The notes beneath the pieces are model-generated. The model made no database searches, was not told where the DNA came from, and worked only from the letters and a program-made list of their open reading frames with translations. A DNA stretch of 7,316 nt, taken from a virus. Lineage: Duplodnaviria > Heunggongvirae > Uroviricota > Caudoviricetes. The translations under genes and the position numbers were made by a program. The DNA is taken from IMG/VR virus record IMGVR_UViG_2778261350_000002, one strand, 5' to 3'. This document shows positions 4,089-7,034 of the stretch, piece after piece; within the stretch, counting starts at the first letter, position 1; every line of letters begins with the position of its first letter.

Positions 4089-7034
4089 ATGACAGACATT
4101 ACAGCCAATGTTGTAGTGAGTATGCCTTCGCAACTCTTCACTATGGCTCGTTCTTTTAAAGCCGTAGCCAATGGCAAAATTTATATCGGTAAAATTGACA
4201 CTGACCCGGTAAATCCTGAAAACCAGATTCAGGTTTATGTAGATAACGAAGACGGTTCTCACATTCCTGTTTCGCAACCAATAATCATTAACGCTGCTGG
4301 ATATCCGGTATATAACGGACAGATTGCCAAATTCGTAACCGTGCAAGGCCATTCTATGGCTGTTTATGATGCGTATGGTACACAGCAGTTCTATTTTCCG
4401 AATGTGCTGAAGTATGATCCTGATCAGTTACGGCAGCAATTAGAAGACCCAGATGGAGCGAATAAATACCCAAAACTTCAGATAGCAAGATGGAGAGACA
4501 GTTATGATGTAAGAGGTTGGGGGGCTATTGGTGATGGTGTTCATGATGATACATCAGCTCTATCAGAATTACTTTCTGTTGCAACAGGTGGTGAAAAGAT
4601 AGATGGGCGAGGGCTTACTTTTAAAGTATCAACTCTTCCAGATGTCAGTCGATTTAAAAATGCTCGTTTTTTATTTGAGAGAATACCGGGTCAGCCTCTT
4701 TTTTATGCTTCTGAAGATTTTATCCAAGGAGAGTTATTTAAAATTACAGATACACCGTGGTACAACGCCTGGACGCAGGATAAAACGTTTGTATATGACA
4801 ATGTCATCTATGCGCCTTTTATGGCTGGAGACCGCCATGGTGTAAATAACCTCCATGTTGCATGGGTTCGCTCAGGAGATGACGGGAAGACCTGGACAAC
4901 GCCGGAATGGCTTACAGATTTACATGAAAACTATCCCACAGTTAACTATCACTGCATGAGTATGGGGGTTGTCAGAAATCGCCTTTTTGCTGTAATTGAG
5001 ACGCGGACCGTGAGCGGAAATAAACTGCAGGTTGCAGAGTTGTGGGATCGCCCAATGAGTCGCAGCCTTCGCGTTTATGGTGGTATAACGAAAGCAGCAA
5101 ATCAGCAAGTCGCTTATATTCGCATTACTGATCACGGATTATTTGCTGGTGATTTTGTCAACTTCTCAAACTCTGGTGTTACAGGTGTTACCGGGAATAT
5201 GACGGTGACTACTGTCATTGATAAAAATACTTTTACAGTTACGACGCAAAATACCCAGGATGTGGATCAGAATAACGAGGGTAGATACTGGAGTTTTGGT
5301 ACATCATTTCACTCGTCACCATGGAGAAAAACCAGTCTTGGAACTATTCCTTCTTTTGTTGACGGAAGCACTCCTGTTACTGAGATTCACAGTTTTGCGA
5401 CGATTAGCGATAACAGTTTTGCTGTTGGCTACCATAATGGTGATATTGGTCCACGCGAGCTTGGGATACTCTATTTCTCTGATGCTTTCGGTTCTCCTGG
5501 TAGCTTTGTTCGCAGACGCATACCTGTAGAATATGAGGCGAATGCATCTGAGCCATGTGTAAAATATTATGATGGCATTCTGTATCTGACGACCAGGGGG
5601 ACATTAAGTACTCAACCCGGTAGTTCATTGCACAGAAGCTCTGATTTAGGTACATCATGGAATTCTCTTCGCTTCCCAAATAATGTTCATCACTCAAACC
5701 TTCCTTTTGCCAAAGTTGGCGATGAGCTGATTATTTTTGGCAGTGAGCGCGCATTTGGTGAGTGGGAAGGAGGAGAACCTGATAACCGTTATGCAGGAAA
5801 TTATCCAAGAACATTTATGACCAGAGTTAACGTCAATGAGTGGAGTCTGGATAATGTAGAGTGGGTTAATGTTACTGATCAGATTTATCAGGGCGGAATA
5901 GTTAACTCTGCGGTTGGTGTTGGTTCAGTTTGTATCAAAGACAACTGGCTGTACTACATTTTCGGTGGGGAAGACTTTCTAAACCCATGGAGCATAGGGG
6001 ATAACAACAGAAAATATCCTTATGTTCACGATGGTCACCCGGCTGATTTGTATTGTTTCAGGGTGAAAATTAAACAGGAAGAATTTGTTTCAAGGGATTT
6101 TGTCTACGGAGCCACTCCTAACAGAACGCTTCCTACTTTTATGTCGACGTCAGGCGTGAGGACGGTTCCTGTACCCGTTGATTTCACAGATGATGTTGCC
6201 GTCCAGTCACTGACTGTCCATGCCGGTACATCAGGACAAGTTCGCGCGGAAGTCAAACTTGAGGGTAATTACGCCATTATTGCGAAGAAAGTACCGTCTG
6301 ATGATGTTACCGCTCAGAGATTAATCGTTAGCGGCGGTGAAACAACATCTTCAGCAGATGGTGCAATGATAACGTTGCATGGTTCCGGAAGCAGTACTCC
6401 ACGTCGCGCGGTATATAACGCACTCGAACATCTTTTTGAGAACGGAGATGTTAAACCTTATCTTGATAATGTAAATGCTCTTGGTGGTCCGGGAAACAGG
6501 TTCTCGACAGTTTATCTTGGCTCCAATCCTGTGGTTACCAGTGACGGAACATTAAAGACAGAGCCGGTCTCTCCTGACGAAGCATTGCTGGATGCCTGGG
6601 GTGACGTCAGGTATATCGCTTATAAATGGCTGAACGCTGTCGCTATAAAGGGGGAAGAAGGGGCGAGGATACATCATGGTGTAATCGCGCAGCAACTTCG
6701 TGATGTTCTTATTTCTCACGGACTCATGGAAGAAGAAAGCACAACATGCCGCTATGCCTTTCTTTGCTATGACGATTATCCCGCAGTATATGATGACGTC
6801 ATTACTGGCCAAAGGGAAATGCCGCTGACTGATAATGACGGGAGCATCATTGTTGATGAGGATGATAATCCAGTGATGGTAATGGAAGACATCATTGAGC
6901 GCGTTGAAATAACGCCAGCAGGATCTAGATGGGGAGTCAGACCTGATCTCTTATTCTATATCGAGGCAGCATGGCAGCGCAGAGAAATAGAAAGAATAAA
7001 AGCTAGGTTAGACTTAATAGAAGGGAGGCACTAA
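4089..7034 (+). CDS. Tailspike protein, 981 aa: P22 gp9-type head-binding N-terminal domain fused to an endosialidase (endo-N-acetylneuraminidase) body and a C-terminal intramolecular chaperone (peptidase S74-type) domain
   Basis: ATG 4089 with GGAG 4077-4080 (8-nt spacer); stop TAA 7032-7034. The N-terminus [11 protein letters not shown]...[31 protein letters not shown]...[12 protein letters not shown]....NVLKYDPDQ matches the P22 tailspike head-binding domain from memory. Two Asp-box motifs (S-x-D-x-G-x-T/S-W): SGDDGKTW (nt 4872-4895, aa 262-269) and SSDLGTSW (nt 5637-5660, aa 517-524). The C-terminal ~160 aa begin at ...[11 protein letters not shown]..., the expected autocleavage Ser-Asp context. 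Confidence 0.85.

Follow-up and report, generated by a model that had tools for sequence, protein, structure and literature searches.

A tailspike gene of CUS-3 type, joining a P22-like head-binding adaptor to an endosialidase, on a prophage-derived contig

Introduction

The tailspikes of phages P22 (gp9) and Sf6 (gp14) combine an N-terminal head-binding domain with a body that is a right-handed beta-helix endorhamnosidase, and their genes are located after the immI region. In the lytic T7-like phage K1F, the endosialidase endoNF (gp17; PDB 1v0e, 3gvl, 3gw6) is built from a propeller, a barrel, a stalk and a self-cleaving chaperone, and it is attached to the virion via a T7 gp17-type N-terminus and not via a P22 head-binding domain (PMC5380687). 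The enzyme fold, the mechanism and the chaperone domain of this homologue have already been solved.

The two architectures meet in CUS-3, where a P22-type adaptor is followed by the endosialidase SiaK1 (ABQ88383.1), the GenBank record of which gives direct-assay evidence for endo-alpha-sialidase activity (PMID 16689790, Stummeyer et al. 2006). The siaK1 gene is placed after ant and before neuO, which has a repeat of AAGACTC units beginning two nucleotides past its ATG (PMC3046976). The exchange of modules among CUS-3, P22 and K1F has been described in a review (PMC5380687). Both the chimera of P22 adaptor and endosialidase and the pairing of tailspike with neuO were published in 2005-2007, and are hence already known; the neuO pairing has been under study since 2005.

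Here we consider a stretch of 7,316 nucleotides, the window in what follows, from a virus of the Caudoviricetes (IMG/VR record IMGVR_UViG_2778261350_000002). A first-pass annotation, made from the letters alone, proposed that the gene at 4089..7034 (+) encodes a chimeric tailspike of this kind and that it is accompanied by a neuO-like locus. The proposal was correct but not new, since CUS-3 was named there as its precedent.

Results

The reading frame and its domains

The tailspike reading frame is real and of full length, with 981 codons and no internal stops. The six expected Pfam domains were all detected, each over the entire length of its model and with a score that far exceeds the gathering score, and they follow each other in the order given in Table 1. 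When the modules were searched separately, all tests agreed on a P22-type adaptor joined to an endosialidase, and the division of the protein into residues 1-115, 116-818 and 819-981, as first drawn, is right to within a few residues when compared with the Pfam and structure boundaries.

Table 1. Features of the window, with positions counted from its first nucleotide
Feature	Position	Strand	Evidence or remark
Three ORFs	1131-2327	-	No confident family from PADLOC/Pfam
Arc-family ORF	2317..2580	-	
Arc-family ORF	2680..2820	+	
sar RNA	2986-3052	-	Rfam, 83.9 bits, E 4e-17
ORF with Ant domains	2987..3988		
Terminator-like hairpin and T-run between ant and tailspike gene	4006..4033	+	8-bp stem with 5 GC pairs, then TTTTTAT
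Tailspike CDS, 981 aa and stop	4089..7034	+	Uninterrupted ATG...TAA ORF, siaK1 orthologue
P22-type head-binding (virion adaptor) domain, aa 1-113	4089..4427	+	PF09008, tailspike comparison
Linker between adaptor and endosialidase, aa 114-145	4428..4523	+	P22/Sf6 alignments end by 118, K1F alignments start at 145
Endosialidase N-terminal extension, aa 146-212	4524..4724	+	PF12218, positions 1-67 of 67, E 8.9e-37
Catalytic six-bladed beta-propeller, aa 213-662	4725..6074	+	PF12217, positions 1-367 of 367, E 3.1e-233
Asp-box 1, SGDDGKTW, aa 262-269	4872..4895	+	Regex S.D.G..[WFY]
Beta-barrel (polysialic-acid-binding) nested in propeller, aa 324-406	5058..5306	+	PF12195, positions 1-83 of 83, E 1.2e-46
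Asp-box 2, SSDLGTSW, aa 517-524	5637..5660	+	Regex S.D.G..[WFY]
Stalk (tail-spike) domain, aa 663-817	6075..6539	+	PF12219, positions 1-160 of 160, E 7.4e-78; aligned to end of 1v0e chain
Intramolecular chaperone, self-cleaving domain, aa 818-981	6540..7031	+	PF13884, 3gw6
Predicted scissile junction S818/D819	6540-6545	+	Mapped to endoNF S911/D912
Promoter-like site upstream of neuO	7143..7171	+	ATGACA, 17 nt, TAAAAT, TG before -10; consensus match only
neuO 5' end	7188..7248	+	ATG, TC, 7 perfect AAGACTC units (7193-7241), then 1 imperfect

The adaptor and the joint

The N-terminus had been read as P22 gp9-like over about 110 residues, and this is borne out by a match to the whole length of the Head_binding model (profile positions 1-113 of 113, E 6.4e-66, 220.1 bits against a cutoff of 24) and by the solved N-termini of P22 and Sf6. 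In a search of solved structures, the Sf6 tailspike 7sg7 aligns with aa 1-118 (E 8e-67), and the P22 tailspike entries 8tvr, 2vnl and 1lkt match with E-values of 1e-46 to 1e-52 (aa 1-117 at E 4e-52). The likeness to gp9 and gp14, which includes the gene position after the immI region, extends to the KYDPDQ hinge at aa 108-113; past the hinge the alignments decay and all of them have ended by aa 118, after which the window protein is unlike the beta-helix bodies. At the nucleotide level, similarity to the tailspike genes of HK620, epsilon34, N7 and UPF_BP1 ends correspondingly at window positions 4426-4435. The linker that follows is covered by no Pfam model.

The endosialidase body

Residues 145-817 match the crystal structures of K1F endoNF (1v0e, 3gvl) with E=0, in agreement with the proposed endosialidase body, and the phi92-type structure 4hiz is matched at E 9e-273. 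A chance match of the body is excluded, because the E-values range from 0 to 1e-233. Amino acid identity to endoNF is 65.5% over aa 146-817, and the two Asp-boxes reported from the letters alone are both present as quoted. When positions are transferred via the 1v0e alignment, the endoNF residues H350, R549, E581, R596 and R647 correspond to H250, R456, E488, R503 and R554, so that all five catalytic residues are conserved; in a deep mutational scan of the K1F enzyme these positions are intolerant to substitution (PMC12632334).

The window protein differs from endoNF by a 7-residue insertion at aa 422-428, by G310 in place of K410 and by M760 in place of Q853, and G310 and M760 are both found in the active CUS-3 enzyme too. 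The polysialic acid binding site of the endoNF stalk is reportedly made up of R837, S848 and Q853 (Stummeyer et al. 2005); the first two are retained here, as R744 and S755, and the third is the one replaced by M760.

Every PDB and Pfam match to the body is an endosialidase, and a body of the non-sialidase depolymerase type was therefore rejected: among the matches listed, no such depolymerase matched aa 146-785, and the remaining tailspikes and fibres share just the N-terminal adaptor or the part that begins near aa 785 and runs on into the chaperone.

The C-terminal domain

The Peptidase_S74 model PF13884 matches aa 818-878 with 41.5 bits against a cutoff of 22, and the endoNF chaperone structure 3gw6 matches aa 819-978 at E 1.5e-48 when the C-terminus is searched alone, and otherwise at E 1e-94. 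The Ser-Asp junction noted earlier in this domain is S818-D819, exactly where Peptidase_S74 starts. S818, D819 and K823 correspond to endoNF S911, D912 and K916, with the Lys five residues past the Ser, and from this conservation together with the 3gw6 match the suggestion of a self-cleaving C-terminal chaperone appears well founded. S818 and K823 presumably act as the catalytic dyad.

Comparison with CUS-3

In a gap-free alignment of equal length, 969 of the 981 residues (98.8%) are identical to CUS-3 SiaK1. Five of the 12 substitutions lie in the head-binding domain and six in aa 146-817, none of the latter at a catalytic residue. The nucleotide differences from CUS-3 are distributed very unevenly, with 20 in the first 300 nt and 0-3 per 300 nt elsewhere in the gene, and the adaptor allele is therefore of different ancestry.

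CUS-3 and the window also agree in domain order and in the surroundings of the gene. Upstream, as in CUS-3, mnt, arc, sar RNA and ant make up an immI region of the P22 kind, and downstream the region between tailspike and neuO is almost identical to that in CUS-3 (CP000711). The neuO ATG, at 7188, is 154 nt downstream of the tailspike, with start and repeat placed as in CUS-3. Of the neuO-like locus that had been proposed, the promoter region, the ATG and the AAGACTC repeat are thus in the window, while the coding body of neuO is outside it. After the repeat, the 3' end of the window consists of A-rich junk, and int and att are not reached.

A collinear and near-identical genome outside the tailspike, as CUS-3 in the strict sense would need, was not found. 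Just 63% of the window aligns with CUS-3 at the nucleotide level, the DNA-transfer protein shows 67% identity in its C-terminal half, and where CUS-3 has hkcB/YafO-type genes the window has the ORFs at 1131-2327. The tailspike allele is of the 720R6 type (below), the neuO junction is of the CUS-3 type, and the ejection protein and the accessory ORFs adjacent to immI are different again. Judged by these alignments, the window is related to CUS-3 as a mosaic and is not CUS-3 itself.

As for the accessory ORFs, two of the three belong to PHROGs families of unknown function, Pfam yields only sub-threshold XhlA and RING matches, and a tblastn search of 50,697 phage records gave no match to the 181-aa ORF. 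PADLOC found nothing credible as a defence system in this interval, with one partial Cas10 match of 17.9 bits, and a known defence system was rejected, as there was neither a credible PADLOC match nor a Pfam match above threshold.

Other relatives and distribution

Among the matches listed, the closest alleles are those of Escherichia phage vB_EcoP-720R6 and of a prophage in E. coli Ecol_AZ159, which along the full gene are 99.7-99.8% identical in nucleotides and, as here, lie on a P22-like (Lederbergvirus) backbone. The Ecol_AZ159 prophage adjoins ybhB-bioA and is without ant before the spike and without neuO after it, whereas the window has both. Among 5,426 complete E. coli genomes, 181 carry 80% or more of the gene, and among the matches listed it is 99.6-99.8% nucleotide-identical in many E. 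coli genomes.

The catalytic and chaperone module occurs also behind another adaptor. The tail fibre of vB_EcoP_ZX5 (Uetakevirus, epsilon15-like; QTH80017.1) shares it with 99.5% nucleotide identity over window positions 4610-7002 and is nearly identical to the window protein from aa 175 to about 967, but it is 1039 aa long, has an unrelated N-terminal adaptor of about 190 residues, and diverges in the stretch matching aa 134-174 and in the last 12 or so residues. The catalytic part is furthermore 58-66% identical to endosialidases of the lytic phages K1F, K1E-type and K1G/K1H, for which the recorded hosts are K1 strains, while the endosialidase-like proteins of a Mannheimia phage are distant (37.6% identity).

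The left end of the window

Positions 1-77 of the window are the right end of IS100, with 100% identity, and at position 78 the element joins residue 377 of a DNA-transfer (ejection) protein of about 719 aa. All 5,426 complete E. coli genomes searched lack this junction. Since 77 nt of IS100 abut the middle of the DNA-transfer gene, the prophage is probably defective, and it follows that the spike may no longer serve to build infectious virions.

Discussion

We conclude with very high confidence that the tailspike encoded at 4089..7034 belongs to a temperate podophage of E. coli K1 that is CUS-3-like and of P22 type. The reading frame, the domain architecture, the conserved catalytic and cleavage residues, the near-identity to SiaK1 and the genomic setting are observed directly, while trimerisation, proteolytic maturation, cleavage of polysialic acid and the K1 host would follow by analogy with characterised orthologues. 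As the window contains no host DNA, we infer the K1 capsule of the host from the literature (PMC3046976, PMC13001214) and from the K1 hosts recorded for related phage entries.

By the same reasoning, the spike may be pictured to work as follows. The first 113 or so residues would, as their sequence suggests, dock it onto a P22-type tail. Residues 818-981 would drive the folding of the trimer as an intramolecular chaperone, and then be released by self-cleavage after S818. Residues from about 146 to 817 would constitute a GH58 endosialidase, with propeller, barrel and stalk, that binds to the K1 capsule's alpha-2,8-polysialic acid and cleaves it, so that the virion may reach the outer membrane. 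In the lysogen, the neuO product would O-acetylate the same capsule, a modification that the phase-variable AAGACTC repeat would control.

One may ask whether the sialidase fold is merely what this body has in common with the K1 enzymes, and its true substrate a different one, such as some other acidic capsule, or polysialic acid solely in O-acetylated or alpha-2,9 form. The existence of the Mannheimia phage proteins and the 12 substitutions relative to SiaK1 could be taken in this sense, but half of these substitutions fall outside aa 146-817, those within it spare the catalytic residues, the protein is all but the same as the assayed CUS-3 enzyme, and near-identical genes recur in E. coli genomes, all of which makes a different specificity very improbable. 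It is still harder to believe that a P22-like contig was joined to a contig of a K1F-like phage in assembly: both ends of the window do resemble short-read contig breaks in repeats, but there is no break in GC content where the two parts meet, and the fusion occurs in full length in the CUS-3 reference and also in closed genomes and phage records, where identity along the gene as a whole is 99.7-99.8%. An assembly artefact was rejected because closed genomes carry the same full-length gene.

More weight belongs to the proposal that the spike is an intact-looking relic of a decaying prophage, which is not assembled into infectious particles, in a locus kept only for the benefit of neuO to the lysogen. 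In its favour is the IS100 junction, absent as this is from the complete E. coli genomes, and some CUS-3 relatives in such genomes (H27, H41) carry IS3 in or beside the tailspike. Against it, the tailspike frame is uninterrupted and has kept every catalytic and cleavage residue, and the junction is located at the very edge of the contig, with the rest of the gene and of the prophage out of view. We regard this as possible, if somewhat doubtful; it bears on the present-day use of the protein and not on its identity as a CUS-3-type tailspike. With similar reserve, we suggest that the window may come from a mosaic CUS-3 relative, not sequenced before, with an ejection gene split by IS100, where an intact spike and neuO persist in a non-infecting prophage, as a step toward domestication of a capsule-modifying locus by the host.

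To tailspike biology the gene adds nothing new, as a chimera of P22 adaptor and endosialidase is a textbook case of tailspike module exchange. Its value is one of annotation, in that the contig can be recognized as part of a CUS-3-like prophage, and with such a prophage one would expect an E. coli host with a K1 capsule, probably an extraintestinal pathogen, in which O-acetylation of the capsule would be phase-variable.

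Domain Structure of the Tailspike

The tailspike gene, an orthologue of siaK1 of phage CUS-3, runs from ATG to TAA without interruption as a single open frame of 981 residues (4089..7034, +), in exact agreement with the first-pass annotation, and the two Asp-boxes and the Ser-Asp pair quoted there are all present in the protein. Six Pfam families lie along the chain, each matched over its full model length with a score far above the curated cutoff.

Solved structures were searched first with the complete protein and afterwards with its N- and C-terminal ends separately. The body, residues 145-817, matches the K1F endosialidase endoNF (1v0e, 3gvl and others) with E = 0 and 4hiz with E = 9e-273. 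The N-terminus matches the N-terminal domains of the Sf6 tailspike (E = 8e-67) and the P22 tailspike (E = 1e-46 to 4e-52), in alignments that fade just past the KYDPDQ hinge at residues 108-113, and residues 819-978 match the intramolecular chaperone domain of endoNF (3gw6, E = 1.5e-48). These searches agree with the claimed chimera of a P22-type head-binding adaptor and an endosialidase. A better match of the body to a non-sialidase protein, which would have spoken against the claim, was not found, because no non-sialidase depolymerase matched the body in the solved-structure and Pfam searches. The observation on this gene is thereby confirmed, and its interpretation as a P22-adaptor/endosialidase spike, implying a K1 (polysialic acid) capsule host, is supported.

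Features of the window and of the tailspike protein
Feature	Residues	Window position	Strand	Remarks
181-aa ORF		1131-1676	-	variable accessory slot between ejection gene and mnt
117-aa ORF		1610-1963	-	hydrophobic C-terminal tail; PHROG 6324; weak holin/XhlA-like matches
123-aa ORF		1956-2327	-	two CxxC pairs; PHROG 4293
Mnt/Arc-family ORF		2317..2580	-	
46-aa Arc-like ORF		2680..2820	+	
sar antisense RNA		2986-3052	-	Rfam RF00262, 83.9 bits
ant		within 2987..3988		both P22_AR domains
Terminator-like hairpin		4006-4025		
Head_binding	1-113			Pfam E 6.4e-66
End_N_terminal	146-212			Pfam E 8.9e-37
End_beta_propel	213-662			Pfam E 3.1e-233
Asp-box SGDDGKTW	262-269	4872-4895	+	
End_beta_barrel	324-406			Pfam E 1.2e-46; nested in propeller
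Asp-box SSDLGTSW	517-524	5637-5660	+	
End_tail_spike	663-817			Pfam E 7.4e-78
Ser-Asp pair	818-819	6540-6545	+	
Peptidase_S74	818-878			Pfam E 1.6e-10
Promoter-like site upstream of neuO		7143-7171		

Catalytic, Binding, and Cleavage Residues

In a deep mutational scan of the K1F enzyme, H350, R549, E581, R596, and R647 are listed as catalytic and intolerant to mutation (PMC12632334). When residues are mapped through the 1v0e alignment, with 244 added to the chain index to obtain endoNF numbering, all five are conserved, as H250, R456, E488, R503, and R554 of the tailspike, and so are Q330, D331, H527, S528, K585, and N699 (endoNF numbering). At the cleavage site, S911, D912, and K916 of endoNF align with S818, D819, and K823 of the tailspike. 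In the same alignment Q853 of endoNF, which we take to be part of the stalk binding site, is replaced by M760. K410 is replaced by G310, at a position reported to tolerate substitution in vivo (PMC12632334). Both G310 and M760 also occur in the active CUS-3 enzyme.

Genetic Setting

The tailspike gene lies in a P22-type immI region, and the immI module is complete (2317-3988); the true start of ant is likely the ATG at 3053 rather than the GTG at 2987. Upstream, the 181-aa ORF had no match in Pfam, PHROG, PADLOC, or a tblastn search of 50,697 phage records. In E. coli AHM8C212RI a 140-aa hypothetical protein of RefSeq (WP_000467047.1) apparently occupies the same position. The 117-aa and 123-aa ORFs, which overlap each other, are possible moron or exclusion genes; CUS-3 has hkcB/YafO-type genes in their place.

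The first 77 nucleotides match the right end of IS100 (IS21 family) with 100% identity, taking in the final codons of istB and the terminal ...GTTGACA, and at position 78 this end meets the gene of a P22-like DNA-transfer (ejection) protein (78-1106) at about residue 377 of about 719. A search of 5,426 complete E. coli genomes found the junction (77/78) in no case. Should it be real, DNA ejection by the prophage is probably defective, although the spike gene is intact. The window probably represents an entire contig of a short-read assembly, bounded by two repeats.

Past the tailspike stop codon comes a 154-nt intergenic region that hardly differs from that of CUS-3. The ATG of neuO lies at 7188, with TC and the AAGACTC repeat coming after it; this is the published layout, with the repeat inserted two nucleotides past the start codon and expression only at copy numbers divisible by three (PMC3046976; PMC13001214). 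The siaK1-neuO interval also holds, just 5' of the promoter-like site, a 15-nt inverted repeat conserved in CUS-3 (TTTCGTTGGCGTCAA / TTGACGTCAACGAAA; 7038-7052 / 7100-7114), whose arms are 93% complementary and 47 nt apart. After seven perfect AAGACTC units the repeat degenerates; of the final 75 nt (7242-7316) 80% are A, and the stretch stays in phase with the repeat, most G, C, and T being read as A, and there were no database matches beyond 7250. This A-rich stretch is probably an artefact of sequencing or assembly where a contig ends in low quality, and the repeat number and ON/OFF phase of neuO can therefore not be read from the window.

Relatives and Module Exchange

CUS-3 siaK1 (ABQ88383.1) is identical to the tailspike at 969 of 981 residues without gaps, and its GenBank record cites direct-assay evidence of endo-alpha-sialidase activity (PMID 16689790). 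Compared by sequence, the window differs from CUS-3 proper: just 63% of its length aligns at megablast sensitivity, its DNA-transfer protein shares 67% identity with that of CUS-3 over the C-terminal half, and the ORFs at 1131-2327 (-) are unlike the CUS-3 genes at that position. Of the 34 nucleotide positions at which the tailspike gene differs from CUS-3, 20 fall in the first 300 nt (4089-4388) and the remainder of the gene has 0-3 per 300 nt, an excess that points to a head-binding allele different from that of CUS-3. A recombination breakpoint lies close to where the head-binding domain ends.

Phage vB_EcoP-720R6 and several closed E. coli chromosomes carry alleles closer than that of CUS-3, at 99.7-99.8% nucleotide identity along the full gene, and at least 80% of the gene is present in 181 of 5,426 complete E. 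coli genomes. The most similar allele belongs to a P22-like prophage of the 720R6/Ecol_AZ159 type, which adjoins ybhB-bioA and lacks ant and neuO, both present in the window. The endosialidase spike thus also occurs outside CUS-3 backbones that carry neuO. Over its catalytic part the tailspike shares 65.5% identity with K1F gp17, about 61% with spikes of the K1E/K1-5 type, and about 58% with those of the K1G/K1H type; for many phages of these types the recorded hosts are O18:K1 strains.

By analogy with characterised orthologues, the C-terminal chaperone domain would help three chains to fold and then be cut off after S818, leaving a mature trimer anchored to the P22-type tail through its N-terminal domain. 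The propeller active site, together with binding sites in barrel and stalk, would bind and degrade the K1 polysialic acid capsule, so that the virion reaches the outer membrane. After lysogeny, NeuO would O-acetylate the same polymer in a phase-variable manner; in recent work this modification lowers killing by K1 phage (PMC13001214).

The CUS-3 spike has its N-terminus in common with P22, Sf6, and HK620 and its catalytic domain in common with K1F, which carries a T7-type N-terminus instead (PMC5380687, citing Stummeyer et al. 2006). Since this chimera is published and CUS-3 was already named in the first-pass annotation, the finding is already known, and the P22-adaptor/endosialidase design is a textbook instance of modules exchanged between tailspikes. 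In the epsilon15-like phage vB_EcoP_ZX5 (Uetakevirus), the tail fibre gene (2303-5422 of the phage locus) matches window positions 4610-7002 at 99.5% nucleotide identity and has the endosialidase and chaperone module behind an unrelated N-terminal adaptor. From this identity follows recent movement between podophage genera, and the comparison indicates that the module has recently been exchanged among temperate ones.
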